Made by a program: the position numbers and the translations under genes
The notes under the pieces: model-generated
What the model was told of the DNA's origin: nothing
Databases searched by the model: none
Seen by the model: the letters and a program-made list of their open reading frames with translations, nothing else
Source: Nemertoderma westbladi
Taxonomy: Eukaryota; Animalia; Xenacoelomorpha
Assembly: GCA_032718475.1 (NCBI GenBank)
Contig: JAUCBJ010002693.1
Location: 1-64,000, forward strand
DNA length: 64,000 bases
Reading direction: 5' to 3'
Part shown: piece by piece, positions 3,444-47,206 of the stretch
Position numbering within the stretch: the first letter of the stretch is position 1
Layout of the letters: the number at the start of each line of letters is the position of its first letter

Positions 3444-3989
3444 CTACTACTACTACTACTAGGATCGGCATGCTGCATTGCAGCTGCATTTTTAAGAATG
3501 CTGTGCCGGCTTATCGACAAAATTGCACCGCCACAACTCCCTATCACCCATGACATTTGCTAGATCATCCGCATCTTCAAGGCCAGTGTCCTTTAAGATG
3601 CGTCTCAAGAAAGTCATGGGCTGTCCACCATGCTTATTCACTCCATGAGGCTGCCAAAGTACAAGATTATGCACTGGCTGGTCCTCACGGCGAAAGCAAT
3701 GTCCTGCAAAGCGGAGGCGATTTTGTTCTAGTGTCAAGCTTGGGGGAACCAATGAGACACCTCCAATGTTATATAGTGTCTGGTTGGAGATGTGTGCATT
3801 GTACTTGACACAATGAACCCGGCGTAGCATTCTTGTGAATGTGCCATCCAGAGATTTGGTGTCCTCAGCAGTTAGAGCCCAGCATGGACTCCCGTAGAGG
3901 AGTACTGGAACTACTGCTGCTCTAAATAATCGGACCTTAAGTTTCCGATTAATTCTCGGTGACTTCCAAATCCTGGAAAGCCTATTCAG
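3444..3989 (-). mobile_element. 5'-truncated RTE-clade LINE (3' end of ORF) with (TAG)n tail
   Basis: Translation LLYGSPCWALT...RLRFAGHCFRR...LVLWQP is typical of the RTE C-terminus; CTA repeats at 3444-3461; near-identical copy at 22282-22860. Confidence 0.88.
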
Positions 3990-4275
3990 AGATGCACACT
4001 TGAATGAAGAGAAGAACGAATCCTAACGTTATAGCTATATCGATTCTCCTCACACAGATTATGATATACTGAGTGTTTGCAATAAATTAATTGATCATTA
4101 ATTAGGAGTTAGGTCTATATATATCATACTCCCTGGGGAATCCTTTAGTCTAATAAAATAAAAATGAAAATGATATATAATTTATTGTATATAATTTATT
4201 GTCCTGTATATCAAGAATGTGACCAACATTTATTTCTATTACTTTCATATTCCACAATACCACTTTTTTTTATAG

Positions 4276-4371
4276 GAGATGTTGACAAAGAAATTGCTGT
4301 TTATCTTTTAAACAAGGATACTGAGTCAACTATAACTAAAGACGAATTTGGTTTCGATGTTATAGATGATG
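4276..4371 (+). CDS. FREM2: FREM2-like exon (end of last CSPG repeat)
   Basis: tatag|GA GAT GTT...GAT GAT G|gtaag; DVDKEIAVYLLNKDTESTITKDEFGFDVIDD. Confidence 0.8.
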
Positions 4372-7300
4372 GTAAGTTGATTAGGTGTATAAAACTGCCA
4401 AACAATTGGAGGCCAATACTTCCTCACCATTTTTAGCACTATTTAGCAAAATAGTTTGATTTCAAAAAGACATTCACGTACCATTTGTCTTTTATTCTCG
4501 AGTCTATTTAATTTCTAGAAGAAATTTAATAAATGAATATAAGGACACCAATTATAATGCCTGTGTGTTTGGAGCTCTTCATCCGATCTGTTCGCGGTAT
4601 TTCAACTTTCCATAACGCGAGTTGAATATTTTTGTATTTTATTAAAATTGATTATTCCGATATTACTACTGGGTGCGGGACCATGGGTTTTGGGCACATT
4701 CTATAAACTGGGGGCGATTTATGGGCGAATTTTGGGGCAACTTACAGGGTACGGGAATAATTTCATAGTTATAAGGGCCAGGGGGGGATGGAAAATGCAA
4801 GCAGTATTCAGGTTAGCCTGAGTACTATTAGGCCCTGGCCAACTTCCTGCTGTCTGTAGGGGTGGATTTGGTAATGCGCCAGGCCTAAAGGACAAGGACT
4901 GCCCTTAGCAGTCCCTGGCCAACAGCAGCCATTACGAGACTGAAAAGAACTCGGACCGCTGACTGCTTGTGTCAGGGATTTGCGACGGGAAACGACGGCC
5001 CCTTAGTAGCCAAGCCGTTCTGGTTCTCGATGATCGAACCCTTCGGGGTTCATGAGGGGTGGAGCGGACACGCGAATGGGTGGCCAACTAACGACTGCCC
5101 CCTGAGCTAAGCCGTACTGGTTCTCGATGACCGATCCCTTCAGGGTTCGCGAGGGGTGGGACGGACATGCGAAAGGGCTGGCCACAGGACGGGTTTGACG
5201 AGGACTGCCCTTAGCGGTCTCTGGTCAACGGCAGCTACTACGAGACTGAAAAGAACTCGGAACGCTGACTGCTTGTACCGGGATCTGCGACGGGAACCAA
5301 CGACAGACCCCTTAGCCAAGCCGTACTGGTTCTCGATGATCGTTCCCTTCGGGGTTCGTGAGGGGTGGAACGGACACGCGATGGGGTCGAAAGACAAAGG
5401 ACTAGACTCGACTAGACTCTACTGGCCTACCGACTGTTCGGAGCAGTTTCTCGGCTGCCGAAGCGACTACGAGCCTGAAAGGGACTCGGAAAGCCTAGGT
5501 GGTTGGGTTTCTGTGATGAACCGACGGACCCCTAGCCAAGCCGTTCTGGTTCTCGATGATCGAACCCTTCGGGGTTCGTGAGGGGTGGAACGGACACGTG
5601 AACGGGTCCACCGACACGACAGACTCCTAGCCAAGCCGTACTGGTTCTCGATGACCAATCCCTTCGGGGGTCGAGAGGGGTGGTACGGATACGCGACAGA
5701 GTCTACCGACTGGACCGACCCTTAGCCAAGCCGTGCTGGTTCTCGATGATCGTTCCCTTCGGGGTTCGTGAGGGGTGGAACGGACACGTGACAGGGTCGA
5801 CCGACACCGACACTACGGTACTAAGACTAGGACCGAGGGAAAATCTGGGGAACATTAGGTAGGCTAAAATCTGAGCGAACAGTGGATAATTAAATAATAT
5901 ACTGTAGGGATTTATATTATCGTGTATAATTATTGTGAATATTTGGTGTATATTGATTTGGGGAAGCCCAAAATTATTCTTAATCAAGGTTCAACAGAGT
6001 TCAGTTACATTAAAGAGTATATCCAACTAATGCAGCTTTTTCTCAACCGCAACCCTGCATCTCAGAAATCATTCCTTCTCCAAAATCAATATCCGGTGAC
6101 TGGCCGGGGCTCAGTGGTCTGTAAAGTCACGTCGCCAGCATCGGCGTTTTTCCCCCCTGGTGTTGGGATAACGGCAACAAAATTAAGAATAATTAATGCG
6201 GTTAATTTTGACAGGGTGTCAAAATTAAGAATAATTACGGTCAACTTCAACTGGTGGAAGTTGAGAATCCTTCAATACTCTTCAAAACTCTCTACGTGCT
6301 TGCCAGCACCCACTACGAGGAAACTCTGGTATTTGAGTTGAGACGAAGTCGTGGTTTAATTAATCAACAAACTCGATCTAACCAACTCATAGTCGGCAGA
6401 TCACATATTTGGAGAGTTGTTAACAGGGAATGGAAGTATCGATCACACCCATTGATATAATCCAAGTTGAGCCAGGAATCTGGCACGTCGAAGTTGAAGT
6501 ACAAGGAACGAACGTCGGACGATTCAGGATTACCGTTCGGGTGGTCCAAGCTGAGTACAATACCTACGAGGAACTGTTTTATGACATCGCGTATCTAGCT
6601 ATCGACGAGGCGTTACAATGACGACAAATAACGTATCCGATACCGACGAGATGGATCACCACACAGACTCGGAAGCCGACGAGGTACCAAACGTCAAGAA
6701 CATGACCCATCGGCTAGGGGCTCTTAAAGGCGGAGTAACCCGAGCGTATCAACGGATGGAGAAACAACTCAAGGGAGTCAAAACCCCCCTCAATGAGGTA
6801 CAAACTCAGCTTCAAAGTATCCGAAATATCCTACAGCGGTACGAAAGAATGATACAGGCGTACCAAGAGCTCGTTCCCCCCACTGATCAGGAAAACTACC
6901 CCAAGTTGGAAGAACACGTTGTACATCTAGATGGGTTCCGCAAACAACACCGGAGGACCCTCAGCCTTGTGAGAGGCTATGAAGAACAGTATTACAAGAG
7001 GGCTGAAAGAACAGACGCGGAATCAGTACGATCCTCCAGCATCAGGACAGCAGTACATCGAAAGAGAACGGGGTCCGCTAGAAATCAGCACTCCAGCGCT
7101 AGGAGCGAGATATCCGGCTCAGCGCGCAGTTCTCAAGGGGCGCCGCCACTCCGAGACCAACTGCGAGAACGGAAGGCATTAGCCCTCAAAGCTCGGATGG
7201 AAGATGAGTATATTCAACTACAAGCCGAGCAAGATGTATTAGCCGCCGAAACACAAAAGCGAGAGGCCGAACAAGCGGCCGAACGGCAGGCCGAACAACG

Positions 7301-10300
7301 CGAACAGGAGGCCGAACAACATAGACGAGAGGCCGAACGGCAGGCCGAACAACGCGAACAGGAGGCTGAACAACATAGACGAGAGGCTGAACGGCATGCC
7401 GAACAACGCAAACAGGAGGCCGAACAACGCGGACGAGAGGCCGAACGAGAGATCGAACAACGTAAATGGGAAGCAGAAATGCGTAAACAACACGCCGAGG
7501 CCCAAGCAATTCTCATCCACAAAAAGAATGCGGATATTGCAAAACTCGCGGAATACGAAGCCGCACTTATAGAACGAGATATTCAACTCTACGAGGACTG
7601 GGAAAGGGATATAGATCAGGAATATGAACCAATCCCGGTACCGGAGTTAGAAAAGTCATTTACACCGACAGCGGCGAACTTTCCGAAACCCGAGATCCCG
7701 CCTACCAAACAGTCTATGCTATCGGCACAAGCACCGGTGTTCCATCCCCCACCGGCTACGCTAAAGAATGATGAACCTTATTTCCCATCCAACACCACGA
7801 CAGCGAGTGTACCCAAGTACGAGCCTGAAAAGGACTCGGAACGGGACGCCACTCCCCGATCGAACAACCCATTTACATCAACACCACAAACTCGTAGCCG
7901 CGTCATTATTAAAACTCCACCTATTATTGATCCATCAAGTATGGGAGTGAGTGCCAATAACTATAACCCTCCGAGTCACTCCAGTTCAGACGACGTCAGC
8001 ATCATCCGGGCGTTGGAGAACCGCCTTGCCATGCCTAAGATGGAGATTCGCACCTTCGAAGGAGATCCCGTCGATTACCTCAGATTCAAGAAACGGTTCT
8101 TTGCGCAGATCGGATCAACGGACATAGCCGACGCACAGAAATTGGTATATTTATCGCAATACTTGGGTGACAAACCACGCAGAATTATTGCATGTTTTGA
8201 AGGAGGTTCTCATGAGGCATACTATGACGCATGGAAAACTCTAGATAAAAGATACGGAAATACTGGAACTATAATTAATAAAACTCTAGAGAGACTGATA
8301 CAGGACGCGGGATCACTAGGGGACCCACAGAACATACAGGAATTCTCCGACTCTATGAAGGATGCCTACTATACTCTGAAACCCTTAAATAAGGAGGACC
8401 AGGTGAACAACATTCTAAACCTCCGACAGATCGCCCGGAAGTTCCCCGGATGGCTACAAAGTAAGTGGGCTTATAAATGTGTAGATCTCCGGCGCAGACA
8501 TCCAGATCGAGATCCTAGCTTCCTTGAAATGTCGGCATTCCTGGACGATATCTCCGAATCCATGAATGACTCGATGTTTTCAAAACATAGTCTCGCAAAG
8601 TTGGACGGAATAGAGAGCAACTCCAGGAGTAAGATAACCCCTCCGAAACCGAGATTCCGCCCCCCACCGGTAAGTACGATGGCCATTACCATGGCCGAGG
8701 ATTCCGACGACGAAGACTACGAGGAACCGACATCCGCCGAGGAATGGGCATGTTATCTCGCGAGTTGGGCACCCGAAAGGGAAGGCATCACAAATTCCCT
8801 GCTCTGTCTCTTCTGTGGGGAGAAACATAAAGTGGAATTCTGCAGAAAGTTTCAGTTCGCCGAACTCGTCCCACGCTTCGAGGCGATAATGAAACACCGA
8901 GGATGCTTCCGGTGTCTTGGAACAGGTCACTATGTTCGGGAGTGCGACCAAAGATCATGCTGTGCTGTCTGTAACGACCAACGCCATCACACGCTCCTCC
9001 ACATCCCCGCGAACTTCGATTTTACTACCCTCCCCTTTCGGATCGAAGCCAGGCGAAGAGGAGAAACAAACCACGTCTTCAAAGGAACCCGGACAACCCA
9101 ACGGAGAGAAACCAACCCGTTTAAAATCTCCACCGATACACCACAAGTAACAAATATTTCGGCCACGATTAATCTTATAAATCGCCGCTACATGGTCTTC
9201 GCAAAGGTAATCCCAGTAAGGATCCAAGGAGTCGGCAAATCTTTGACGACACTCGCGTTCCTCGATAACGGGTCCGACGGAACCATCATCGACCGGGATT
9301 TCCTCGAGCAACTCGGCCTAGAATATGAACCTTGTAAACGGCCCATACAAACCATCACCGATAACAGAGAGGTAGAGTCCGGGGAGGTGCAACTCCAGAT
9401 GGAAGGAGTGATGAAGGGCTACGAAACGGCTAAGTTAACCATCAAGAACGCCTTGGTACACACAGACCTCCGGGTGCGGTTCCGACAATCAGCCGAGTAC
9501 CCCCCCTCATACAATTGGACCGAGACGATGTAGACCTGAGGTGTCCGCAGTTGGACGTAAACCGTATCACCCTACTGATCAGACTTGATACACCGGAACT
9601 ACACATCCCCACCGGAGATATCGCCCGATCTATAAACCAGGATGACGGATTTTATGCTGAACGAACAATAATGGGATGGACACTCTGCGGCATTAAGGAG
9701 GAAACTACGGACACCTATACCTACCTTCCCAAATGTCAGATTAAAGAGAATGTAACCTCTGTGGGTTATTGCTCAGCTTCGGATCTTGACGAGGATTTGT
9801 TTCTGGAAACCGAGAAAACCCAACGAGAGATGACGAAATATTTTAATTTGGAGACCCAGGAGTTCGCGGAAAAGGACGAAAACCCATCCGAAGAGGACCA
9901 ATATTGTATGGACGTTCTCGACCAGGCCACGTTTAAAGACGGACACTGGTGTTCACCTATGTTATGGAAGGACCCAAACAAACCAATGGCAAACAACGCC
10001 AGCATGGCACTTAGGCGACTTAAAGGGATTCTACGCCGGCTGAATGACCAACCCGAGATAAAGGAGAAGTATAATACCGTAATCCAAGGATATCTCGATG
10101 ATGGATTAGCAGAAATGGTACCACGGAACGAACTGCAAGGTGGTAAAAGAACATATTATCTCCCAACCCACTATGTAGTAGAAGCCCGCAAAGGTGGGAA
10201 AATCCGAGTGGTAAATGATGCTGCCGCTATGTACCAGGGCGAATCCCTAAACAGTCAACTTTACACGGGACCCAACATATATAGCACACTCATCGGCGTA

Positions 10301-13300
10301 TTGATCAGGTTCAGGGAAAACCGGGTAGCATTCACCTGTGACATCAAGGCCATGTTTCATCAAGTTCGTACGTTACCAAGAGACTCGGACTGTCTACGTA
10401 TCCTATGGACAGATAAAACGCTTACTCAACAGGAGATTAGCCAACTCACGATAAAGGACGTAGACGTAATGCGTATGGTCGTCAGGATCTTCGGCGCTAA
10501 GGACTCGCCGGTAGCATGCAGTGACATGCTAAAGAGGACGGCAACTATGTGCGAAAACGAGTTCCCTCCAACCGTCATAGAAACCATTCAACGATGCTTC
10601 TACGTGGACGACGGATGCGACGGCGCGGATAATGTAGATGAGGCGTATCGGCTAGCAATGGGGATGGTAGAATGTCTAAAGAAAGGAGGGTTTCCGCTCG
10701 TGAAGTTCAGATCCCATGACAAAATACTTATGGAAAAGTTTCCGCAGGACATCCGGCTGGAAAATAACAAAATGTATTCGGAGGATGTGGAACACCGTGT
10801 ACTCGGAATTGAATGGGACATAGAATCAGACGAATTCATCTTCAAATATAAACCCTTACCCAAGCCTATGACAAAAAGGGGATGTTTGTCGATAAAAAGC
10901 GCCATCTTCGACCCACTAAATTTCATATCTCCAGTAACCTTGGCCGGAATGAACCTGATTAAGGAAATGTGGATAGAAGGACTGGGATGGGACGAAGAGC
11001 TCCCCCCACACCTCAGCGTCAAATGGAGAAAATGGACGGAGCAGCTCGAACACCTACATCTTATGCGGATACCTAGACCGTTCTTCCTCGATAAATTGCC
11101 CACAGATATCTTCCAGCTCCACACCTTTTCGGATGCTTCAAATACCGGAATCGGCGTAGTCACCTTCTTACGGAGACTAAGTAACGATGGAAACGGCGAT
11201 ACAAGCTTCTTATTCTCCAAAGCAAAGACAGTATCCGGGGAATTCGTAGCAACGATTCCGAGACTCGAGCTACAAGCTGCGGTTTGGGCAGTAAGACAGA
11301 ATCGCATGGTCATGCGAAATCTACGGATCCCCATAGAATCTCAACACTTCTGGGTCGATTCGAGTATAGTTCTCTATTATCTCCACTCTCCATCACGGCG
11401 CCACACCACGTTTGTTGCAAACCGAGCCACGGAGATTAAACAGTGTACCGGCCGAGAACAGTGGCATCACGTGAACAGGAAGGAAAACCCAGCGGACTTA
11501 TCAAGCCGAGGCGCCACCCCAAAACAACTCGGCAAAAGTAAACTCTGGCTTACAGGCCCGGAATTCCTACGGCAGCCACAATTAACATGGAGTACACGAT
11601 TCGACCCCGAGCTCGATAGCGGAAAATACTCCGAGGACGATAAAGAGATCCGTAAAATCCATCGAAGCAACGCGGTGGAAATTTATAGTTGTCTGACTGA
11701 GCCTGCAAAGGACTCGGGCAGGCACTATAACGTCGCGACGATCACTCAACTAGCGGCGTCTTTACATCGGTTGATCGAGCGAACTTCATCCATGAGACGG
11801 CTCGTCCACCACGTTATAACCCTTCGCAACTTCCTACGGTGGAAAAACAACAAACCGATAGTTCAACGGAATATACAAGAACTCATTATCGCGGAGAAGT
11901 GTATTGTTAGATATGTCCAGAAAGAAAGTTTCCCCGATGAATGGGAACAACTTAGTGCGGGCAAAACATTGAAACCGGACAGCCCAGTCTACCAACTGAG
12001 ACCAATGATGGGAGAGGACGGACTGATCCGACTGAATACCCGGATGGCAAACGCCCCGGTCGAATATGAGGTTAAATACCCGGCGCTTCTGCCCGGAACG
12101 TCGACACTAGCTAAGCTATTAATTCTACAATGTCACGAGGACAACCACCACGCAGGACAGAATTGGATTATAGCTAATATAAGACAAAGATATTGGATCA
12201 CCCACATCCAGCCACTGATCCGGAAAGTGTTGAAACGTTGCTTCACCTGCAGACGTTACCTAGCGCCACCAATCACCCAAAAGATGGCCGACTTACCAGC
12301 CACCCGTCTACAAGCGGATTCCCCACCATTCTACGTCACCGGAGTGGACTGTTTCGGACCGTTCACAGTTATTGAACGACGATCCAACATCAAATGCTGG
12401 GGAGCCATCTTCACCTGCCTGAGGTCTAGGGCAATTTACCTAGATATCGTGGTAAATCTGACACAACACGCATTCATCAACGCTCTGCGTCGGTTCGTGG
12501 CGAACAACGGGACATGCCGCCACATGTATTCCGATAATGGTACAAACTTCGTGGGAGGAGAAAGAGAACTTAGAGAAGCGATCGAGGGATGGTTTACCGA
12601 TAACACCGCATCCCAAGTCTGGAAGGAACACCAGATACAGTGGCACTTCCAGACCCCCTTAGCACCCCATACGAGCGGGGTATGGGAGAAACTGATCGAC
12701 CTAGTAAAACGATCCATGCGCGTCGCTCTAGGTGATACCCGGGTAACCCATGACACCCTCCGCACAACATTCTGCGAGATCACGGCTACCCTGAACAACC
12801 GACCCATTGTCCCTATCCGCGACGACCCCACAGACCTGGAGCCCCTCACTCCTAACCACCTACTGGGGAGACCCAAAACCCACGTTCTCCCGGAAACCAT
12901 GTTCCCGGATCCCAACGAGATCGCGAAACATACAAACTGGAAAAAGGCCCAAGCGTTGGCAGCGCATTGGTGGAGAATTTGGGCCCAGGAGTACCTCATA
13001 ACCCTCCGGACCAGGAGGAAATGGAACAACACCTACCGGAACGTCGCAGTTGGCGACATGGTACTAGTTAAAGAAGATCTCAAAGACCGCGTTCACTGGC
13101 CTGTGGCGCGGGTCGTGACCATACACCCAAGCAAAGACGGACTTGCGAGGACTGTGACGATACGAACGTCAAAGGGCCACTACCAACGCCCTATCCAGAA
13201 GCTGTGCCTTCTTGAAGGCAATGATAGCGGTGACTCTACGAGAGGTGATAAGATCCCTACTCAAGATCCTGCTGTGGACATTGGTGACAATTACAAACCC

Positions 13301-16300
13301 GTGTAACCCTTCTCATCATGTTGACAAACTCTTATAAAACTGTGATTTATCGACAACGAGTTATGGACCCCCTTTAAACCAACTGTAACCACGCAATGGT
13401 ATTTGTGTTTCCTCGTGTGTTATGTGGAGTCCAGCATCACCCTGCAGATGTTTCGACTGACGCAGGGTCGTTTATGCATTGTTTACCCTGATTTTGGTCA
13501 TCAGGACCTACGATATTGGATTATTGGAAATGGAAAAGATTTGAAGTGGAATTCATTGTATTCATCGCAGTATGTTATGTTGTCCGTTGCGTGCGCAGTT
13601 CGGGGCGTAGGCGGTGTAACAAGTCCAGCTGTAGGCGCAACACCCCCTCTATCCCGTTATTCTGGTGGGTCCATGGTGCATCCACATGACTTCGACGATA
13701 GAGGGTTTTATGTTTCTCAGTCGCGTTATTCTGGTGGGACCGTTACGTGGATTTTGGGGCGTAGGCGGTGTAACGAGTCCAGCTGTAGATCCCAGAATGT
13801 TGCGTAGCCCCATCCCACATGACTTCGTCGACTGAGCTTTATGTTGTTGGGAGTGTTATTCTGGTGGGTCCCTGGTGCATCCACGTGACTTCACTCCCAG
13901 CGTCGTCATTGTCCGTTACGTGCGCAGTTTGGGGCGTAGGCGGTGTAACGAGTCCAGCTGTAGATCCCAGATTGCCGCGTAACACCCCTTCCACGACAAA
14001 GATTAACCAAAGAAAATGATTGAATATAGTTGGAAATGATGAAAAGGATCAGACAACTCTGCTATAAACCTGAATGATGACGCGTATGCTGATGAAAATG
14101 AAATGATGCGCACCCTGGTGCTGCGCTTATAACCAATGATGATAGCCGGGGGGCTATAAACCCAATGATGATGTGGAAATAAATAAATGTGAAATAAATG
14201 GTGGAAATAAATGTTGAAATATATGTGGAAATAAATGAAATGAGATAAAATAATAATGAAATGAAAAAAGACAAAAAAAGGTATAAAAAAGTCTAAAGAA
14301 AAGAATTGGAAAAAAGAAAGGACAAAAAGGTCATAAAAAACTGGTTGGATATTAATGTATAGCTATAGTAACTGTAAATGCTGAATGTATTAGCAATAAG
14401 ATGATAGATGTCTATATAGCAATATTATTTAATAAACTGAATTAAATAAAAAACTGAATTATTCTGCTATCGCTATAGTTTCAGACTTTCTGGACTTATA
14501 ATTAACTGATCTAATTTGTAACGGATATAATCGTAAATATGGACCCAAATCGCCAAATTATCGGCGAATTACGTAACACGATAGATCTACTGGAATATTC
14601 GCAACCTGGATCCCCTGACTTTGATACAAATTGGAGCACCCTGCTAAATGAGAACATGCGAGTCATTAAATTCACCGGGCGAGAGGGACCGGATTCTAAG
14701 AATCTACGAGCCCTCCGGTTAGCCGATGCTAGTACGAGACTGAAAAGAACTCGGAACGCAAAGGCAACCGGAGGGGACGATTCGTCGTTTTGGGAAACGT
14801 TCCGGCAGAGCGTCTACAGATCCCGATGTTTGATCTACGACAACGAGGGAAACGCGACGCCCACCTCGAAAGCGATTACGTTGGCGAGATGTCAAAGTTT
14901 CGTCGACGACAAGAGTACGTACCTCGCCCACTGGGGAAACCTGTCGGAGTGTACGGCGACGCTTCGAGAGGAACGCGTATCGATTATCCAGAACCGAGAC
15001 GACTACCAGGAAAAGTACGGGGCGAAAGAATACGGTCGATCCTTAGTCGTCGTCCTCGGAACCCTGGACGGTTTGGTACTTGTGTGCCGAATATTCCCGA
15101 CACCCAGACAGGAAGTGCAGGCAGCCGGAGCGATCTGGTTGCTGCCTCCAGAAATCCAAAAGATCCTCTTCGACTTCGACGTCATTAAAATCGGGTCGGA
15201 TATCAAGGCGGACGTCCGGAACGACTACGCGAACGCCCCTGCAGGAAGAAACCGACGAGACGACCTCAACGCCCTTAGCCATTGCATCGACACTCAAACG
15301 CTACTAGCCTGGTTACGATTCGCCGAGTTCATGTGAGGATTCCAAGAGGTGAGACCGACGAAATCCGGGATCGGCTACCTCGCTGTGCTAAACGGCGGTA
15401 TCGACTTCAAACCCCAGAAATTCCGGGACTATAATAAAATATACGGTGGATACCCGGGATTAGAAATAAAGAGCGAGCGAGAGGGTCGATGGAAGGACGT
15501 TGATCGGAAGTGGACGATACACCAAAGGTGGGAGAATCCCGATCGACGGAACTACGTTTACGTCGTTATGGAGTGCTACACCGTCGCTAAGTTTATCTGT
15601 AAAACTCTCGATAACCTTATTACGGCGGTCCCCCTTTCCTTCGTCGACTACGACTGGAACGAGGTCATACACCACGCGTTCAAAGCGGTCGAGAACATCG
15701 CACCGGGAGAGACTAAAACGCTCGCCGTTATCGATTCCTGGGACGAGAGCGGGCCTTACGACATCCCTACGATTACCAAACTTCTCGGTGCGGAGGAGCC
15801 TCTGATCTCTTCGGAAGGGGAAGAGATATGGCTAAACGAGGGTGTTCTACTCTCCACCCCGAAGCGACAACTCGAGCCGGAGGCCGCGTATGGACCGGCC
15901 GCCAAACGGGTTGCCTCGGCCGAACCGATGAAGAGAGCAGGCGTTTACACCCCACGCGGCTCCGGTAGCCCCGCGAGGGAGGTAGCCACTACAGCTGCAT
16001 TGAGCGACTTCGGCAACATATGCCAACGGTTATCCCCGTATCCTTTCCCGGGTGGCGAAGATTGGTCGTCGGAGATTCCGAGTACCAGCCACCAACGGAC
16101 CCGCTCAGCGATACTGGTCGAGGAGGGCCCCAGCGATGCGCCGACCCCCGACGATCTCCTCGGTATCCCTCCGTCTAAAACCCCGGCACCTCTTCGCCGA
16201 CCAGCGGTGGCTACTACACCCGCCGTTCCTCAGGACCCTATGCGACTAACCCGTTGGTACGCCGAGCAAACTGAATGGATCCACCGCCAGAAACGGTCGT

Positions 16301-19300
16301 CTGAGTTGAGACCAGCGGGACACAAAGAAGGTTATCGGAGCGAGAACCTACTACGCAAAAGCCTAGCATTCCGCGGGCTACCGACCACCGCGAATATTCC
16401 GAAGAGCGACCGACGACTCGAGTATCACGTCGGCGTCCCGATTCCGATATTTCCTGGTCGAGAGATGCAGTTGGAGGTATGCGGCGACTGTGGTTCGGAG
16501 CAGTGCCCACGCGGTAGAAGGAATCGGGTTACCGATTCTTGCCTCCAGCTCCTCGGGATACTCTATTGCCCATACTGCGCGACATCGGGCCACGACGTTT
16601 CCGTCTGTCCGATCCTTTATAACCTCTGCACCACGTGCGGTTTCCGTGGACATTCCTCTAGCCCCCGCTGCTATATCAAATGTCCAACCAAAGACGTTAC
16701 CGCTATGGGAAATATGGTCATGTTTGAAACATACGCAAACAGCCACTTAAAGACCAAGGTTCGGAGAAACGCTCGGAATATCGCGCAGGAGATGGCGTGC
16801 GGGTATTTCTCTTTCCCGGAACGCCTCCACACGTCGGCCACGCTACCTTTCCATTACGTGGATCTGCTACTGAGCGCCGGATTATTCGGTCCATTTGAAG
16901 TCATTAGACGGTTATACTCGTATAAAGAGGAGTTCGGTGACGGAGAGTGGTTCCTAGAGGCAGGCAAGTCTGAGTTGGAGAGACGAACCGACATGATCCC
17001 TATGCCATCGAAAGGAAGAGCCGCCAGGAGACAAGCCGAAGCGTTACTCACGATGGACGTTGACGCTCCTCTACCAGCCATAGCGATCGATGAGAGTCGA
17101 CGGGCGAAGAGACGAAAGGCGTATCAGAGAAAGAAATAGTGGATCGGGATATTCCAGGAACATTTATCAAACATTTATTTTTATACAAACTCTAGGCCAA
17201 ATTAATTAAAAACTATGCAATATTAAATTTGGGTTTTTTATATTGGGAATGACCTACGCAAACTCAATCGACCGACAGACTTCACGAAGGTCATTGGGGG
17301 GGACTGTTCGCGGTATTTCAACTTTCCATAACGCGAGTTGAATATTTTTGTATTTATTCAAAATTGATTATTCCGATATTACTACTGGGTGCGGGACCAT
17401 GGGTTTTGGGCACATTCTATAAACTGGGGGCGATTTATGGGCGAATTTTGGGGCAACTTACAGGGTACGGGAATAATTTCATAGTTATAAGGGCCAGGGG
17501 GGGATGGAAAATGCAAGCAGTATTCAGGTTAGCCTGAGTACTATTAGGCCCTGGCCAACTTCCTGCTGCCTGTAGGGGTGGATTTGGTAATGCGCCAGGC
17601 CTAAAGGACAAGGACTGCCCTTAGCGGTCCCTGGCCAACAGCAGCCATTACGAGACTGAAAAGAACTCGGACCGCTGACTGCTTGTGTCAGGGATTTGCG
17701 ACGGGAAACGACGGCCCCTTAGTAGCCAAGCCGTTCTGGTTCTCGATGATCAAACCCTTCGGGGTTCGTGAGGGGTGGAGCGGACACGCGAACGGGTGGC
17801 CAACTAACGACTGCCCCCTGAGCTAAGCCGTACTGGTTCTCGATGACCGATCCCTTCGGGGTTCGCGAGGGGTGGGACGGACATGCGAAAGGGCTGGCCA
17901 CAGGACGGGTTTGACGAGGACTGCCCTTAGCGGTCTCAGGTCAACGGCAGCTACTACGAGACTGAAAAGAACTCGGAACGCTGACTGCTTGTACCGGGAT
18001 CTGCGACGGGAACCGACGACAGACCCCTTAGCCAAGCCGTACTGGTTCTCGATGATCGTTCCCTTCGGGGTTCGTGAGGGGTGGAACGGACACGCGATGG
18101 GGTCGAAAGACAAAGGACTAGACTCGACTAGACTCTACTGGCCTACCGACTGTTCGGAGCAGTTTCTCGGCTGCCGAAGCGACTACGAGCCTGAAAGGGA
18201 CTCGGAAAGCCTAGGTGGTTGGGTTTCTGTGATGAACCGACGGACCCCTAGCCAAGCCGTTCTGGTTCTCGATGATCGAACCCTTCGGGGTTCGTGAGGG
18301 GTGGAACGGACACGTGAACGGGTCCACCGACACGACAGACTCCTAGCCAAGCCGTACTGGTTCTCGATGACCGATCCCTTCGGGGTTCGAGAGGGGTGGT
18401 ACGGATACGCGACAGAGTCTACCGACTGGACCGACCCTTAGCCAAGCCGTGCTGGTTCTCGATGATCGTTCCCTTCGGGGTTCGTGAGGGGTGGAACGGA
18501 CACGCGACAGGGTCGACCGACACCGACACTACGGCACTAAGACTAGGACCGAGGGAAAATCTGGGGAACATTAGGTAGGCTAAACTGAGCGAACAGTGGG
18601 TAATTAAATAATATACTGTAGGGATTTATATTATCGTGTATAATTATTGTGAATATTTGGTGTATATTGATTTGGGGAAGCCCAAAATTATTCTTAATCA
18701 AGGTTCAACAGAGTTCAGTTACATTAAAGAGTATATCCAACTAATGCAGCTTTTTCTCAACCGCAACCCTGCATCTCAGAAATCATTCCTTCTCCAAAAT
18801 CAATATCCGGTGACTGGCCGGGGCTCAGTGGTCTGTAAAGTCACGTCTCCAGCATCGGCGTTTTTCCCCCCTGGTGTTGGGATAACGGCAACACGATCCA
18901 TATAGACATCCGTATAGAACTAATTAGCTGGTATCGACCCCAGTGGATAAAAGGGTGAGTGCACCCTGGAGAGATACAGCATTACATTTTTTTTTATTCC
19001 TTATTATAAACTTTGTTGTTTTTCTTCCTCTAGGTGGTAACGCCTTACAAAGCCAAAAATTTACTCTCGAGTGGTCCTGGATTTACATGGATACAAAGGA
19101 AGTTATAGTTAATGAATCCAATGCTTATATCGATGTGAAGTTAATAAGGAATGGCTATCTGGGAGAGCAATCTGTTATAGGTGAGTGAAAGATGCTAAAC
19201 GTGGAAATATATTAAATATATAAATTGTTGGTCTATATTTTGAATTATTAATTTGCTTGAAACAAAACAACTTTATGAAGCTTTATTTCAAAAAATGTGC

Positions 19301-22300
19301 CGCCATAATAATATGTTTTGACCTAAATAAAACATATATCTGTGCAGTAACTGTGCATCAAATCTTACCGCTCTATCGAAATTAAATATGTACAAATCTA
19401 TGATTTTACCGATAATAACCTATGCATCACCATGTTGGTCTCCAAATAAACACGACCTATCACGTATAGAGAGTCTACAACGACGTGCCACTATCTGGAT
19501 ACTACGAGATAATGAATCGACCTACACAGATCGGCTCAAATCACTTAACATTCTCCCCCTTTCTCTCTACCTACAACTCCTAGATTTGATGACGCTGTCG
19601 AAGATTATCGCTGGAAAATGCGATATCAACTGGGAAGAACACCTCAAACTAAGCAGACCATCAAACCAAAATACTCGTTCAAATGATCGGATTTTATTTA
19701 ATGTTGCGCGGCCGAAGAAATGCAAGTCAGAAAAAAACTTTTGGTTCCGAGTACCTTACATTGCAAATGTATTACCTAATCGAATCAATTTCACAAACCA
19801 TTTAGGGCTTAAATCTCGTCTGATCGATTTATTTTGGAGGTACTTCATTAAACACTACTCAATTGATATTCCCTGTAGCTGGTCGGTGTGCTGCAGCTGC
19901 GTCTTGATGAACTGTAGAAATAATAACTCTCGTCTCGATGATTTATACCCATAGATAACGACTTATATTCTATAATGCTTTATTTAATTAATACAAATTT
20001 TATTTCACTTCACATCCACTCTGACCCTTTTAATACGTATTTACTGCATCTCATTTTAAATTTAATACGCATATATTTTATCTCATTTTTACGACATCAG
20101 AGACCGACCCTTTTATTAATACGTATATATACGTATATGTCATCGTATTTAAATACAAATATTTCTATCTAATTTCATATAACATCCAGTCTTCTGACCC
20201 TTTTAACTTCTTCGTTTAATCTCATAATTAGCACGGCCTTTTTGAGACCAATTACATACAGTAATAATTTTAATTCGGTGTATTTTAATGTACCTTAATT
20301 AATTATTAACTCATATTTTAAACTAAGTAATGTATGAAATGTATGTAATGTATCTTTTATGGGGGAAACCCCATCCCCATATAATACTATAGTTAAATCT
20401 GTCGACATATGCTGTCTTTGTTCGGTTCTAAGTTATGGTGTAAATTTATATTAATAATAATAATAATAATATATTATCTGTATAGGCTGTGGTAAAGTCT
20501 TATCGGTAGGTAGTGGGGCTTCATGGCCTAAGATGTGGTAGGCAGACTCCATATGTAACTTATTCTCAATGCAATCGCGTGCTGGTGAGTTTCAGCCCCC
20601 CCCCCCCCCCCCCCCCCCCCCCACTCCAACACCAACACCAACACCAACACCAACAACTGGCAATGGTATATTAACTGATGTACCAAAGGAACCTAAACTC
20701 GCACCAAGTTCCCAAATTCCTAAAATATATTCATAAATTCGTCTTGATGTAATAACAGTAATTTGAGAACCTAATTTCTAATTACGGGGTCCTAAATTCG
20801 TAGTTTGGTAGACATTCGCAATTCTAGACATTCTCTGCAAACCCTAATTGGTTAATTACTTCTCTACTAAAATTAATATCAATTAAAGGTATGCTCTTCC
20901 TGAAGAACTACTCAAATGTAGTTAGCCGCCCGACCATGATATTGACTAACGTTCTAGAAATCGGTTAACAAATAATTCCCATCAAACTGAGGAGAACATA
21001 CACAATCGCCATACCAAAATGACGAAACAATATTCGTCTTTCTAGGAAACTGAAAATGTATGTGGCTTTTCCACAAATTTCCTCATATATTCCATAAATG
21101 ATATACCAACCCAGACGAAACAAAAATGGACAAGTAGCGAGCGAGCGGAAACAAGAATATTTAGAAACCAATGATTAATAATTAATTTGAACGATTTTAC
21201 ATTTTTCCTCTATAAGTTTTTCTCTTATCTCGGTTATCCTCCTCCAGTTATCAGGTTGAGGCTTCCCGGGGGATTAGCGAGATGGGAGAGACTATTGTAT
21301 AATCGGTTCCTCTCTGGATTTCGAGTAAATCTTCCCCAACATTCTGAGGTATTACTGAAGGAAATAAGTATATTCCTGACGTCTCTTATTTTTGCTGGAT
21401 TGGGGGGAGGCTGCGGCAATCACTACTATCCCACAAAATGCCCCTCTCTCTCTCTTGGTAGCTGCTACATTAGCGCTAATGCGATGTGCATCTGATGGAC
21501 GGACTGGGAGCTGGCGAGAGTAGCCACTGGCCCAGAGATACTCAAGCCTTTTATTCCCTGCCGTTATCTCCCCAGCCCTAGTAGTGCCACCTGGTCGTTA
21601 GTTTTATCAGCAACCCGGGGAAAGAAAGTTCGGGATATTTCGGGTTGGCAGGATAGATAATCATCCTAACTGTAGTTTGGTATTTTAGATTTGGGGTTTT
21701 CTATCAATTTTCTAACTGGTGCGCTGAAGCACGGGATTTTGTCAAGGCTATTTGTATACCGTAGTACTTACGCAAAGTGTTATAAATGGGAAAGACTAAA
21801 AAAAGGGTTTAATAGTTATGGAGTGTTTACGTTGGGAGTTAGTGTGGCGCCCTCAATTCCAAGAAAAGGGAGCTTTCTGCTTCCTCTGGTGATTCATTTT
21901 TCATTTCCACCGATAAATTTTTTCCAAGTTCCAGAAACAGAAACAGTACTTGTATAATATACAAAAAGTATCGTTGAGTTCTCTCTATAAACATCTGACC
22001 ACGAAAAGTTTAGAAACAACTGGTGTTTATTATGTTATCCTGAGACAAGATTTATATAGTTTAAGGGTTTGATAATAAATTTGGCCTACTTAAAAATTAC
22101 CCATTTTAGTAGACATAATGAAATACTATGATAGACTATACTACTGTATGATCGATTTAGGGACTGTAACATATGTCCCTAAACATCTTTGAGTAATATT
22201 ATCACAAATACAAACTACAATATGTGTTGAATGCTTTTAAAAGTTTAATATAATTTAATTTAAAATATTAAGGGAAAGGAGCTAGGATCGGCATGCTGCA

Positions 22301-25300
22301 TTGCAGCTGCATTTTTAAGAATGCTGTGCCGGCTTGTCAACAAAATTGCACCGCCACAACTCCCTATCACCCATGACATTTGCTAGATCATCCGCATCTT
22401 CAAGGCCAGTGTCCTTTAAGATGCGTCTCAAGAAAGTCATGGGCTGTCCACCATGCTTATTCACTCCATGAGGCTGCCAAAGTACAAGATTATGCACTGG
22501 CTGGTCCTCACGGCGAAAGCAATGTCCTGCAAAGCGGAGGCGATTTTGTTCTAGTGTCAAGCTTGGGGGAACCAATGAGACACCTCCAATGTTATATAGT
22601 GTCTGGTTGGAGATGTGTGCATTGTACTTGACACAATGAACCCGGCGTAGCATTCTTGTGAATGTACCATCCAGAGATTTGGTGTCCTCAGCAGTTAGAG
22701 CCCAGCATGGACTCCCATAGAGGAGTACTGGAACTACTGCTGCTCTAAATAACCGGACCTTAAGTTTCCGATTAATTCTCGGTGACTTCCAAATCCTGGA
22801 AAGCCTATTCAAGGCTGCCCATGCCTTTCCCTTACGTATTCGAAGGTCCTCACCTGACTTCCGTTACAATAAAAAAACTTTATGCGACCAATTTGCTTTT
22901 TTACGCACTTTTTATCAATTGCTGTCAATTTGCGCCGTCAATGTTAATATTCTTGATGTAGTCAATGTATCTGTATGGCCAAGAAATTTACGCGAAATTC
23001 TGAGATTAAATACGATGAAAGTGACTCATGCAGCTGATATGCCAACGAAGCTGAGAACGAATTGTAAAACGATACTTGCAAACGCGATAATTTGATGAGA
23101 TTGATCGTGCTAAATGCGGCCTTTAACGGTCTTCAAAGTTCTCGAATGTCACCAAGTTGTACGAGTTCACAAAGCCACTATATCTTTACTTAATTTATTT
23201 CCGGTAGGCCTAAGTGAGTAAGATAAAATATAGCCTACTCCCACCGTTACTGGGTGACTACAGTAGTATGTATAAGGTAATCGGATACCTCAATTATTTT
23301 TTAATTTCGAATTTCTGAGAAATACTGTAGTTTGTAATATACTGCGATATTGGGAGAATCGAAATTGCGACAACTATGGAGAATCGGGGAGACGGGATGG
23401 ATCTAATTTCCACTGTCCGAGATCGCTTGAATAACACCCACAAACACAGCTACTGTATATGCTTGCTTGGTCTCGTTTATAAATTGATTTTCTAATGTAG
23501 GACTAGTTGAACTATAATATGTTAATTTCTAGCGTTTCCTTGTGTTTTCGTTTAGGCGAATATTTGAGTCGGCTTTTTACTTTTTTAAATTTTTTTTTAG
23601 ACATACAGTGACATACAGTAGACATACTGTGGTCCCACATTATTTAATTTTAATTAGTTTTTTATTTTATTTTACTCCGTATTATTCCTCATGTCCGACC
23701 TTTTAACCACATTTTTCCGAGTTCCGTTTCTTTTTTTAAACGGCCTCGATTCAGACAACTCGCCACAAAGGTTTACAATTGATTAATTAAATATTAAATA
23801 ATCCATAATTAATTACTTTAAATTAATTAAACTAAATTAATTGATTACATATATTCTGGTGCAGTTTATTATTAACTTTCGTCTTTCTGGGTGAATTTAG
23901 TCGTAAAACATTTAAAAAATTTATTTTTTTATTTTTATATATTTTTATTTATTTTCTTATTTATTCTTATTATTTATTTATTTTATTTTATTATTTCTTT
24001 GTATAAAATTGATGGCCACAATGGGCCACCATAATTAACCCTCAATATTACACTAATTTATGATTAGGTTATAAACATATTATTTAATTTTGACATTTCC
24101 TACTGTACTACTGTATAGGTCCATCAATACCAGAATTTATAAATTGCATCTGGTTCACTCCACCCAACTAAAGTTTCCATTAATGATTCCACATTAAATA
24201 TGCAAATGGGCCGGTAACGACGCCCTAGGTGAGCGACAAACTTGATTCCAGATTGTGGATTAATTCGAATATTAAATTACTATTTTGACCGCCGGCCGTG
24301 ACCTTTCTTTCCGGTGGGGCGATAGTGTTCCAACGCCACCAGAAACCCCAAGAGGTTAAAACTGACCTTAAATCTACCCTGTAGAGCTCCCTAATAGTGT
24401 AGGACTACAGTAAACACAGGGGAACCGACGGAATCATACCTTCTAGCTGTTTGCAACTCAACGCCAAATGAATTAACACATGTCGCCTCTCCATAGCAAC
24501 AACATAAGAAAAGTAAATTATGTGGGTCTCTGAATGTCAGTGGTTGTTGAGGATTTCTCTAATAGGAAATGTTTTCCATCTTGCTGCATCATGCATTTAG
24601 GCATTGACTCCTTGAGTCTGACAACGGAAGCTTTCACGACGAGCTGTAGGCCTATAATCTGATTACTGCCTTTACCGTTGTAAATAGTTACATTCCATTG
24701 TAATGGATTGCTACAGTACGTTATAGGGGACCCTTTTAACGCTAATGGTATATGTTGCCGCTGTGCTGACTATTCAGTACATAACCGACTTCCCCCAAAC
24801 CAAAACCTTTCTTCAGCTGAAGTTAGACATTTTTTAACCCCCAAAGGAAATCACAGTCCTGTTGTTTTTCTCATCAGATTATCTGAGATTTCCGCGGTCC
24901 TCAGGTTGTTCCTGCGCTGAATCTTTTGTCTCATTTTTCATCCCGAATTTTGCCCGAATAATGGAAGGATTAAGCCCAATTCGTATGTGTACAACCCGCG
25001 CTTTAGCTATTGCTGGGATGAATTGGCAGTTTCAATCATATCTTTTGGCTGATTAAATTTTTTAACAACTCTTAATATTATTTATTGTTATTTAACTTTT
25101 ACTTTTGTAATAATACCAGTTCAAGATGTGACGTCATCTATCACATAGCCCGTAGTCTTTTTATTGGTCTATTATTTGTAGATATAATAATAATTTAATA
25201 TCAATAAAGATATTCCCAGACTGCTCAGAAAATTGTTTATTTATTTAATTTATTTTTCATCTTGTTTTATTGGCTAATACTAATACAATCAATATATTTA

Positions 25301-40300: not shown

Positions 40301-43300
40301 CTAAGGAGGTTGGATTGCATATAAATGCTACCAAGACCGAATTCATGACCTTTAATGTTGATGGAAACTTGACAACCATTGATAATAATCAACTAAGGAA
40401 GGTCGAGGACTTCCAGTACCTTGGATCGTGGATAGAGAGTAGCAAAAAGGACATAGAAGTTAGGAAAGCAAAGGCTTGGGTAGCTCTATCAAAAATGGAT
40501 ACCATCTGGAAATCAGATCTCTCCAGGCACCTGAAGACTAAGTTCTTTCTAGCCACAGTGGAAAGAGTATTTTTATACAGGGGTTGAGACCTGGACACTG
40601 ACTAAATCACTTGAACAACGAATTGATGGTTGCTACACAAGACTATTAAGGGCAGCCCTAAACATCAGCTGGAGACAACACATGACAAACGCCGAGCTTT
40701 ATGGTTCAATACCACCTGTATCAACCACCCTCCGTGAACGCAGATTAAGATTCAGTGGGCACTGCTGGCGAAGTAAAGACGATGTCATACCAGATCTACT
40801 TCTCTGGCAACCAACTCATGGAAAGCGTAGTCGTGGACGACCGGCCATAACATATATAGATCAACTTGAAAGGGATACTGAACTTGGGAGAAACGAAATT
40901 GCGACAACTATGGAGAATCGGGAAGCCTGGAAGGATCTCATTTCCACTGTCCGAGTTCGCTCGATCTAGTTAATACTTATTTCTATAAATAATTACATTT
41001 TGTTTTTTTAGACAGTGACGCCCATCTAGTTCCTAAATTCCCGGATGAGCCGCTAGTTGTCTCTCTGTTGGATTACGGCAGCGGTGCCCCCCCTAGCGGA
41101 ACGATACCGTCTGGATATCCGGTTGTCTGCGTTTCGGTAAGTTAATCTTAATGAATACTGGTTTTAAATTTAATATTCATGGCTCGTCCCACAATATATT
41201 TTGTGTCGCCACTATTTTTTATTGCATAAATATCACATTAATGATACTTAAAAATATATTTACATAACAGTGCCTGTTAGTTGCTAGGTTACCACACAAG
41301 TAGTTCCCCCATTTGGAAATATTCAAGAATTTGTAATTGTAATTATTTAATTTAAAATGACTTAACTATATCTAAATAAATGAGTGAGATATTTTATTGC
41401 AATATTAACAGCACATTTGACAAAACAACGAAACTGATGCATTTTTGAAACCTGATGTATTGTTTGAAATTGCGAAATCTTAAATATTGGGAGGCCATTT
41501 TGATAAAAAATCAGTATTTTCTTAAACCACATTTTGATATAAGGAAAATTAATCGTGTAATTAATACATAATATATTCGAGTGGAAATAATATTGCGTAA
41601 ATTTGAAACTGTATTCCTCCTTGCAGAGTGAGTCATAATCCACTCTCTGCTATAATACTCATTGAGTTATGGCTAATTATTTTACACAACTATTTTGAAT
41701 TTTGAAATTTGAAATTTGAGATTCTAATTTATTTTTAACTTAAAAAATAATTTTGTTTCATTGTGTGTTAATATTGTATTTAATTTAGTAGTAATATATT
41801 TAATTGCTCTTCCCATTGATAGGCTTGCGACCAGGGCCATCCAAGATATGGCGAGAATAAACGGAAATGTCGGACTCAATGGATAGACAACAGCAAAACT
41901 CGTTACAAGTGGGATGTTAAACCGAGTCACAGTCTGGAGTATCGGTAAGTCGTCTAATATGGTTGGTAAAGTAGTCTAATATGGTTGGTAAAGTCGTCTA
42001 ATATGGTTGGGAAAGTAGTCTAATAGGGTTGGTAAGTCGTCTAATATGGTTGGTAAAGTAGTCTAATATGGTTGGTAAAGTCGTCTAATATGGTTGGGAA
42101 AGTAGTCTAATAGGGTTGGTAAGTCGTCTAATAGGGTTGGTAAGTCGTCCAATATGGTTGGGAGAGTAGTCTAATAGGGTTGGTAAGTCGTCTAATATGG
42201 TTGGTAAAGTCGTCTAATAGGGTTGGTAAGTCGTCCAATATGGTTGGGAAAGTAGTCTAATAGGGTTGGTAAGTCGTCTAATATGGTTGGTAAAGTCGTC
42301 TAATAGGGTTGGTAAGTCGTCCAATATGGTTGGGAAAGTAGTCTAATAGGGTTGGTAAGTCGTCTAATATGGTTGGTAAAGTCGTCTAATAGGGTTGGTA
42401 AGTCGTCCAATATGGTTGGTAAAGTCGTCTAATAGGGTTGGTAAGTCGTCCAATAGGGTTGGGAAAGTTGTCTAATAGGGTTGGTAAGTCGTCCAATATG
42501 GTTGGTAAAGTCGTCTAATAGGGTTGGTAAGTCGTCCAATATGGTTGGTAAAGTTGTCTAATAGGGTTGGTAAGTCGTCTAATATGGTTGGTAAAGTCGT
42601 CTAATAGGGTTGGTAAGTCGTCCAATATGGTTGGGAAAGTAGTCTAATAGGGTTGGTAAGTCGTCTAATATGGTTGGTAAAGTCGTCTAATAGGGTTGGT
42701 AAGTCGTCCAATATGGTTGGGAAAGTAGTCTAATAGGGTTGGTAAGTCGTCTAATATGGTTGGTAAAGTCGTCTAATAGGGTTGGTAAGTCGTCCAATAT
42801 GGTTGGTAAAGTCGTCTAATAGGGTTGGTAAGTCGTCCAATATGGTTGGGAAAGTAGTCTAATGGGGTTGGTAAGTCGTCTAATATGGTTGGTAAAGTCG
42901 TCTAATAGGGTTGGTAAGTCGTCCAATATGGTTGGTAAAGTTGTCTAATAGGGTTGGTAAGTCGTCTAATATGGTTGGTAAAGTCGTCTAATAGGGTTGG
43001 TAAGTCGTCCAATATGGTTGGGAAAGTAGTCTAATAGGGTTGGTAAGTCGTCTAATATGGTTGGTAAAGTCGTCTAATAGGGTTGGTAAGTCGTCCAATA
43101 TGGTTGGTAAAGTCGTCTAATAGGGTTGGTAAGTCGTCCAATAGGGTTGGGAAAGTTGTCTAATAGGGTTGGTAAGTCGTCCAATATGGTTGGTAAAGTT
43201 GTCTAATAGGGTTGGTAAGTCGTCTAATATGGTTGGTAAAGTCGTCTAATAGGGTTGGTAAGTCGTCCAATATGGTTGGGAAAGTAGTCTAATAGGGTTG

Positions 43301-46834: not shown

Positions 46835-47206
46835 AATTTTGTGTCGAGTTTGGTCTTTGCTCCTATCGAGAAGCCAGAAAATAATTCCAATTTTTCCAAT
46901 AATCCAATAATTCCAAAACAATTCCCTGTGATCTGATTGGATAATATCATCATTTCTTGTTAAATAATCACATCAAATTTGATATATTCCGAGAATCCTC
47001 AAGACTCATTAAGCCGGGCAATGCCACCATGGATGGGCGATCTTCCTTTATAGTGTTTTCTACATGTTACCGCAAGTGAAAAAGGTGACCTCCAGTGCAA
47101 ATTAACTGAAAGTGAAAATACGTTTTGGTTATTGTTTTGGTTAGAAAACACCGCCGCTATAACCTGCTCAGCTTATTTCCCCTAATGTTTTAAATTAAAT
47201 TAAACT

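Follow-up and report, generated by a model that had tools for sequence, protein, structure and literature searches.

Two recurrent families of predicted hairpins, one with a k-turn signature, in a BEL/Pao retrotransposon of Nemertoderma westbladi

Why should a retrotransposon carry the same elaborate hairpin six times in each of its long terminal repeats (LTRs)? The question is raised by a contig of Nemertoderma westbladi (Xenacoelomorpha; assembly GCA_032718475.1, contig JAUCBJ010002693.1), of which we analysed positions 1 to 64,000 of the forward strand; this 64-kb stretch is called the window below. The element in question, at 4589-18893 and 14.3 kb long, is a BEL/Pao LTR retrotransposon. 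A preliminary description of the sequence had noticed in both LTRs six modules that join a kink-turn (k-turn) to a UUCG hairpin, and had taken them for a selected RNA scaffold that could recruit several L7Ae-family proteins to the ends of the element RNA, not for a neutral tandem repeat. Here we describe these modules (module A) together with a second hairpin family (module B), which lies between them and which that description did not mention. Both families are very probably selected RNA structures.

Two hairpin families in the array and beyond it

Repeat-family and covariance-model detection recovered all six A modules where the preliminary description had placed them, in the 5' LTR and again in the 3' LTR at +12716, within an array ordered B-A-A-B-A-B-A-A-A (Table 1). 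The 12 copies score 91-109 bits against the module A covariance model and the next best place in the window scores 16 bits; the model was built from these same 12 copies, whose matches therefore hold by construction. From the outside inwards, the module consists of a closing stem, a two-pair stem, a 4x4 loop (YAAG/AYAY), a further stem, the k-turn signature and a 7-pair helix with a UUCG loop, the cap reading CCC-UUCG-GGG. The four closing stems that had been quoted as different in sequence and still complementary (GACCCC/GGGGTC, GGACCC/GGGTCC, AGACTC/GAGTCT, CGACCCT/AGGGTCG) are all present and all pair. The canonical stem, 3-nt bulge and tandem G·A pairs also stand, the C-G pair, the bulge GAU, the G·A and the A·G being invariant in 6/6 modules. 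Other shared features had been drawn too broadly: A2 and A5 deviate from the common string; the loop of the 5'-LTR copy of A2 is UUCA instead of UUCG (UUCG in the 3' LTR); and the U·U pair beside the tandem G·A is present in four, with C·C in A2 and C·A in A5.

The core of module B combines a GNRA loop and a bulged A with a GAG/CUC stem, and it usually stands above a loop-E-like internal loop. In the loop E, or sarcin-ricin, motif AGUA stands opposite GAA between helices. This strand pair is exact in the B copies of gag and of the third open reading frame (ORF3), reads ACUA or AUUA on its first strand in the three LTR copies and is absent from the pol copy. B cores occur at 4936, 5242 and 5471 (with their 3'-LTR twins), and the coding copies have theirs at 7821 (gag), 11699 (pol) and 14736 (ORF3), giving six distinct sites, all in sense orientation and spaced about every 2.4-3.9 kb along the element; allowing one mismatch, no other core occurs in the 64-kb window. 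Three cores lie in the element interior, compared with 0 of 500 interior shuffles that contain any. The flanks of the coding copies share 6-17 of 40 letters with those of other copies, which is near chance, yet each copy forms its own long stem. Moreover, 7 of 17 B pairs show double changes among five copies, and the loop change from GAAA to GCAA keeps the GNRA type. The pol copy sits in a poorly conserved linker (identity 0.05 and occupancy 0.47 at amino acids 721-740, 30 homologues). These coding-region copies with unrelated, self-complementary flanks, which drift or a DNA enhancer would hardly produce, are the best evidence for selection at the RNA level.

In a covariance-model scan of the 64 kb, module A was found in the two LTRs only, and module B at the 8 expected places, at the pol variant (E 0.29) and in 3 weak matches. 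A folding scan of 255 windows gave 21 with z below -2.5 on either strand; among about ten of these inspected, only 11684-11729 was a B copy.

Table 1. Coordinates of the modules and of the other features of the element (z, folding z-score; 3b:3n, k-turn position)
Feature	Position	Strand	Remarks
Module A1	4997..5085	+	closing stem, 4x4 CAAG/ACAC loop, stem, k-turn, UUCG cap; z -2.3
Module A2	5097..5178	+	3b:3n C·C; 4x4 loop UAAG/ACAU; z -0.6
Module A3	5306..5388	+	z -1.7; whole-array model predicts misfolding with neighbours
Module A4	5526..5609	+	z -3.3
Module A5	5621..5704	+	3b:3n C·A; two compensatory pairs relative to A4; z -3.6
Module A6	5716..5799	+	z -0.6
Module B1	4908..4982	+	long stem, loop-E-like loop, CGAG/CUCG stem, bulged A, GAAA loop; z -4.9
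Module B2	5214..5288	+	z -3.5
Module B3	5444..5512	+	z -1.5
Module B in gag	7801..7856	+	low-complexity linker; exact AGUA/GAA loop-E strand pair; z -2.5
Module B variant in pol	11684..11729	+	GCAA loop, no loop E; amino acid 728; z -5.4
Module B in ORF3	14708..14782	+	frame differs from gag and pol copies; z -6.5
Candidate promoter	4770..4826	+	TATAAG at 4770; 10-bp hairpin from 4803 (candidate +1; -13.2 kcal/mol)
Candidate poly(A) signal	5889..5894	+	ATTAAA and U/GU-rich stretch; second ATTAAA at 6009
5' LTR	4589..6179	+	TGTT...AACA, 1591 nt; 98.8% identity to 17305-18893
3' LTR	17305..18893	+	same B-A-A-B-A-B-A-A-A array, offset +12716
Polypurine tract	about 17296-17303		G run ahead of 3' LTR
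gag-protease ORF	6618..9533	+	971 amino acids; DUF1759, zf-CCHC (below cut-off), Asp_protease_2
pol ORF	9515..13306	+	1263 amino acids, frame differs from gag; Peptidase_A17, Integrase_H2C2, DUF5641
ORF3	14539..17139	+	866 codons, in-frame TGA at 15334-15336; Cys/His knuckles, basic Arg/Lys-rich C-terminus

Selection at the RNA level

The idea of a selected scaffold gains support from the recurrence of module B, the folding z-scores, the covariation score and the conservation of the modules relative to their flanks. Covariation had been named in the preliminary description as a check. Over the 10 distinct module A rows, 88.6% of cells pair, a level as high in 2 of 500 shuffles, while none of the 500 attained the covariation score; these figures are inflated by the relatedness of the copies. 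In the 65-nt core of module A, 12 columns vary and three opposing column pairs co-vary (permutation p 0.03): C·C changes to U·U in the 4x4 loop, a stem pair appears as U-A, A-U or purine mismatches, and the U·U beside G·A changes to C·C or C·A. The sense strand folds better than the antisense for the two A copies tested.

Relatives of the element are carried, as contigs, by one public sequencing run (X1, of guessed type; share 0.11, uninformative on expression); no RNA run was listed as a carrier. In an 886-nt contig of this run the LTR joins 17735 to 18452 across 16 shared letters, which leaves one B and one hybrid A. This short form probably arose by deletion, since the A copies differ from one another more than the contig differs from the window, and it may instead be an assembly shortcut. 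The contig departs from the window at 1 of 208 letters in the modules and at 26 of 665 in the flanks (Fisher p 0.010, with 2 of 8 upstream differences unlisted and counted as flank). A second, diverged contig (223 nt) keeps 40 of 42 letters of the k-turn hairpin and the 4x4 loop strand within new flanks; judged by eye, the 5' strand of its C-stem retains 4/4 pairs of the k-turn register, while the rival register would contain a C·A mismatch. From the equal depth and the joint, this contig seems to have a B-like 24-mer upstream.

A number of results weigh against selected structures. Pairs changed on both sides number four, a count reached by 161 of 500 shuffles. The A cores differ at 1-9 of 65 letters (86-98% alike), and much of their invariance may come from recent descent. 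Single-module folding is weaker than z -2 in three of the six copies (A2, A3 and A6). The nearest-neighbour model (Vienna), which gives no credit for sheared G·A pairs, favours a shifted, unkinked register by 1.5-3.6 kcal/mol in 6/6 modules. In the 3'-LTR array the probabilities that each module forms its own cap stem are 0.84, 0.36, 0.0, 1.0, 0.01 and 0.70, A3 and A5 losing theirs in the whole-array model. The comparison of modules with flanks comes from one contig, and against six other contigs (42/1541) its p is 0.053; the places of the two differing letters in the diverged contig were not seen. Last, nine copies may be unnecessary, given an LTR that has a single A and a single B.

Several of these results would be expected if the modules were neutral or DNA-level repeats. 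Such repeats could be an enhancer array or could have arisen when template switching duplicated a GC-rich hairpin, and the RNA motifs would then be by-products. The close likeness of the A cores, their weak z-scores in half of the copies and a copy number that shifts by recombination all fit, and so do the 22 of 300 shuffles of the 935-nt array (7%) that give some loose, generic k-turn match. The same generic scan for k-turn hairpins, whose criteria were chosen after the motif was seen, found 9 of the 12 A modules, no other place in the element and two places in the remaining 49.8 kb of the window (both strands). Neutral repeats leave unexplained why B cores stand in three ORFs, each with its own complementary flanks, why the loop change keeps GNRA and why the modules are better conserved than their flanks, and we regard this origin as improbable.

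Rfam covariance models over 4000-19500 gave three weak matches (E 0.78-0.86), none on the modules; on the array, no ribozyme, selenocysteine insertion sequence (SECIS), C/D or internal ribosome entry site (IRES) family of Rfam matched at E up to 5. Pattern scans of viral contigs returned 0 matches for B and one chance match for A, those of metagenome contigs four matches, none folding like a module, and those of prokaryote genomes six B matches, about chance for a 19-letter pattern and none with a long flanking stem. Alignment of pol to viral contigs gave 0 BEL relatives among 23 candidate stretches. In the literature we found neither k-turns described for an LTR nor structured RNA for a BEL/Pao LTR, in a survey judged mostly from listings and with subscription papers largely outside its coverage.

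The type of k-turn and a proposed function

The preliminary description had called the k-turn of module A 'box C/D-type'. A standard k-turn, with a 3-nt bulge, tandem G·A and A·G pairs and paired C and NC helices, is present at sequence level in 6/6 modules, the C-stem having 4/4 pairs, two of them G·U. Positions 4b:4n and -1b:-1n are C:G in all six, L3 is U in all six, and 3b is C in two. Box C/D k-turns strongly keep 4b:4n = G:C with 3b:3n = U:U and need protein for folding, according to excerpts of Ashraf et al. (PMC5689011); C:G at 4b:4n and at -1b:-1n and C at 3b favour folding in Mg2+ without protein, as stated in excerpts of that study and of McPhee et al. (PMC4382518). The box C/D label is thus contradicted by the C:G at 4b:4n in 6/6 modules. 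Neither a box C (RUGAUGA) nor a box D (CUGA) lies inside the modules, which we exclude from this class. At 3b:3n, the U:U typical of box C/D occurs in four modules, C·C and C·A replacing it in the other two. From the C:G pairs at 4b:4n and -1b:-1n in all six modules and the C at 3b in two, we predict a self-folding, architectural type of k-turn.

Module A has the 3-nt bulge, the tandem G·A/A·G and the C:G at -1b:-1n in common with the ion-folding k-turns Kt-7 and SAM-I and with the protein-dependent ones of box C/D and U4, and shares C:G at 4b:4n with Kt-7. Most riboswitch k-turns have G at 3n, which module A never has. It further differs from known k-turns in its UUCG cap, for which no tertiary partner is evident, and in its six-fold array in an LTR.

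Binding of L7Ae-family proteins to module A would be possible, since L7Ae is reported to fold even poor k-turns (PMC5689011 and PMC4382518, excerpts). A reading that builds on the recruitment idea of the preliminary description makes such binding the purpose of module A: by mimicking a small nucleolar ribonucleoprotein or a SECIS, the module would recruit 15.5K/Snu13, SBP2 or eL30, and this would serve cap hypermethylation, export or the recoding of the UGA in ORF3. The invariant standard k-turn, the U at L3, the U·U in four modules and an array lying 3' of an ORF with an in-frame TGA all speak for it. The 4b:4n pair, the lack of boxes C and D and the silence of the Rfam SECIS and C/D families speak against it, and it leaves module B unexplained; overall, it has little probability. 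A SECIS has an AUGA/GA core plus an apical AA about 11-12 bp away. Module A, in which a core-like AUGA/GA string sits below a short helix capped by UUCG without apical AA, was rejected as a member.

Where do the modules lie in the transcript? One promoter model (TATAAG at 4770, hairpin at 4803, ATTAAA at 5889) would put the array in a 1.1-kb R region, and a second (TATAA at 5925, TCAGT at 6001, ATTAAA at 6009) in U3. The 886-nt X1 contig keeps the signals of the first model, with no listed substitution in the promoter stretch and one 1-nt deletion, at 17497 between TATAAG and the hairpin; the TATAA and TCAGT of the second are changed, and both ATTAAA hexamers have no listed difference. We lean slightly towards R. 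The array would in either case lie, in sense orientation, in the 3' part of the transcript (3' untranslated region). For the 3' end, its supposed terminal location agrees with both models; for the 5' end, it requires an array within R.

We tentatively propose that the repeats form a landing platform in many copies, through which the unspliced RNA would be exported and protected, by analogy to the Rex response element (RxRE) and the constitutive transport element (CTE). This reading draws on the presence of sites on every transcript, their concentration in the LTRs, a number that varies by recombination and an accessory ORF that is Cys-rich and basic. An RNA-binding protein would be loaded by the A and B modules onto the unspliced RNA, promoting its export and protection. 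Module B would form the core site, recognised by the ORF3 product, by Gag or by a host factor, and the k-turn of module A would probably fold by itself in Mg2+ and set the UUCG arm beside the 4x4 loop, binding of an L7Ae-family protein being possible and not required. The transcript would present the array in its 3' untranslated region, and at its 5' end as well if the array is in R; recombination between modules would change the copy number in the LTR, more copies meaning more sites. RxRE (in the HTLV LTR), the Rev response element (HIV) and CTE (MPMV) are likewise structured cis-acting RNAs in or near an LTR with multiple binding sites. The present modules differ from such export elements in that they match none of them in sequence or in Rfam and are built from discrete k-turn/UUCG and loop-E/GNRA units. 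An LTR element encoding a Rev-like export protein is described in excerpts of work on Cer1 CERV (PMC10309623); the present element resembles it in having an extra Cys-rich, basic ORF. The landing platform has difficulties of its own. The evidence fits export, packaging, stability or translation alike, ORF3 as the partner protein is a guess given its in-frame stop and lack of a known relative, and with the array in R the leader would be 1.8 kb long and contain 16 upstream AUGs.

LTR elements with structured RNA signals are already known: a triple-helix element, the ENE, in the 3' untranslated region of Evade (Copia93), which raises RNA stability and mobility, is described in excerpts of PMC12501189. 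The ENE, in a plant Copia element, and the modules, in BEL/Pao, both lie towards the 3' end of the element RNA. We rejected ENE membership: A and B have no U-rich internal loop for poly(A), their loops being CAAG/ACAC and purine-rich.

The main rival to the landing platform, itself unlikely, sees in B (and A) signals for packaging or dimerisation that are scattered along the RNA: the Gag nucleocapsid would bind the repeated GNRA hairpins and pack the genomic RNA, condensed, into the particle. Gag, pol and ORF3 each carry a single B copy, at intervals of about 3 kb, which would suit this role, and retroviral psi elements use small stable tetraloop hairpins. However, B in ORF3 and in the LTR would also mark any subgenomic RNA of ORF3, a transcript that a packaging signal ought to leave out, and no self-complementary kissing loop was found in A or B sequences. 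Docking of the GAAA loops of B into module A was considered: its 4x4 loop maps onto the C2-G10 pair, the AA platform and A8 of the 11-nt GAAA receptor. The receptor's U3·A8 core pair and U7·G6 wobble are missing, with C at position 3 in 5/6 modules and at position 7 in 5/6. In excerpts of PMC10243134, all five 3C double mutants covered, among them 3C7C, 3C9C, 3C11C and 1G3C, are at the detection limit of binding for GAAA, and 1G7C costs +3.25 kcal/mol (part of the dataset, up to double mutants). By these published energies the 4x4 loop is not such a receptor, and the docking was rejected, which also counts against packaging.

Could the array work in translation, as an IRES, a shunt or a 3' translation enhancer that overcomes a long structured leader? 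IRES domains often contain loop E and GNRA motifs, and with the array in R the leader would have its 16 upstream AUGs and a structure of about -400 kcal/mol per kb. The B copies deep in gag, pol and ORF3 are in the wrong places for such elements and no IRES family matched, which makes this role slightly less probable still than L7Ae recruitment. Very unlikely is a new self-cleaving ribozyme formed by A, B or an A+B pair. The invariant internal loops within a compact fold would suit one, and other retroelements carry ribozymes; in contrast, no Rfam ribozyme matched, and cleavage at the coding-region B copies and at nine modules ahead of the poly(A) site would sever the RNA genome. By eye, hammerhead, hairpin, twister and pistol cores do not fit.

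A more elaborate version of the landing platform, which we consider doubtful, would combine k-turn arrays capturing the host proteins 15.5K, SBP2 and eL30 with a loop-E/GNRA site for the element's own accessory protein, both built from motifs in the style of ribosomes and snoRNPs, in a two-part ribonucleoprotein code tunable by copy number and perhaps recoding the ORF3 UGA. A k-turn array in mobile-element RNA would extend k-turns beyond rRNA, snoRNA, U4, SECIS and riboswitches. The B hairpin would be a first candidate cis-signal for the BEL/Pao group, whose replication is poorly understood (ICTV profile, PMC8742986). Both motifs, absent from Rfam, are single hairpins of less than 90 nt, open to direct probing and pull-down.

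The host element and its surroundings

BEL/Pao is a metazoan group. The element is assigned to it by its TG...CA LTR ends, the 5-bp target duplication (4584-4588 and 18894-18898), the polypurine tract, Pao-type gag-pol domains in the order protease, reverse transcriptase, RNase H, integrase, and 109 protein relatives of BEL/Pao type, the best rows 33-37% identical. Belpaoviridae have LTRs of 0.2-1.2 kb and elements of 4.2-10 kb, and two overlapping gag/pol frames are allowed (PMC8742986). Domain order, LTR ends, polypurine tract and the overlapping gag and pol agree with this description, whereas the LTR (1.59 kb) and the element (14.3 kb) exceed the stated ranges, ORF3 has no env match and no primer-binding site was seen adjoining the 5' LTR. 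By eye, in looking for a tRNA-Arg or tRNA-Gly primer-binding site, we found the first TGG ~70 nt beyond the 5' LTR end. Where the site would be expected, at 6180-6250, a duplicated AT-rich 16-mer flanks an inverted repeat of 12 bp.

The gag and pol frames overlap at 9500-9533 near a C run, which may be a lesion or a programmed frameshift, and the in-frame TGA of ORF3 may be a lesion or a recoding site. Searches for homologues of ORF3 found none, and Pfam gave only a weak zf-CCHC_4 match (E 1.9). By eye, we take its first third to resemble a degenerate DEDDy exonuclease fold. ORF3s of DEDDy type occur in bdelloid LTR elements, according to excerpts of PMC5408684. In the spacer between pol and ORF3, three imperfect repeats of about 55-165 nt lie at 13580-13994, one of them with a predicted long-hairpin fold (13889-13988, z -2.5). 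Next, at 14030-14175, come several AUGAUGA and CUGA boxes, with a weak Rfam C/D snoRNA match at 14032-14094 (E 0.78); this resemblance is probably due to chance in a TGA-rich tract.

The two LTRs differ by 14 substitutions, 8 of which are CpG transitions (p 1.6e-4), 7 of these decayed in the 5' LTR. Since the neighbouring host DNA has a CpG observed/expected ratio of 0.92, this bias suggests targeted methylation of the 5' LTR. At a distance, the element is bracketed by a 530-bp direct repeat (3459-3988 and 22282-22811, 99% identical), possibly a larger element that received this insertion.

A second BEL/Pao-type element occupies 50293-61735 on the minus strand. Its gag lies at 55003-58830 (DUF1759), and the two copies of a 635-bp direct repeat, at 50293 and 61101, are 100% identical. 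Modules A and B are absent from it, apart from one weak match to the B model (E 1.6). Satellite arrays lie at 41944-44753, 46089-46834 and 1-750 (periods 43, 41 and 22), and a MITE-like 132-nt inverted repeat lies at 47196-47486. A reverse-transcriptase ORF fragment is found at 48844-50040 on the minus strand (RVT_1, E 1e-19).

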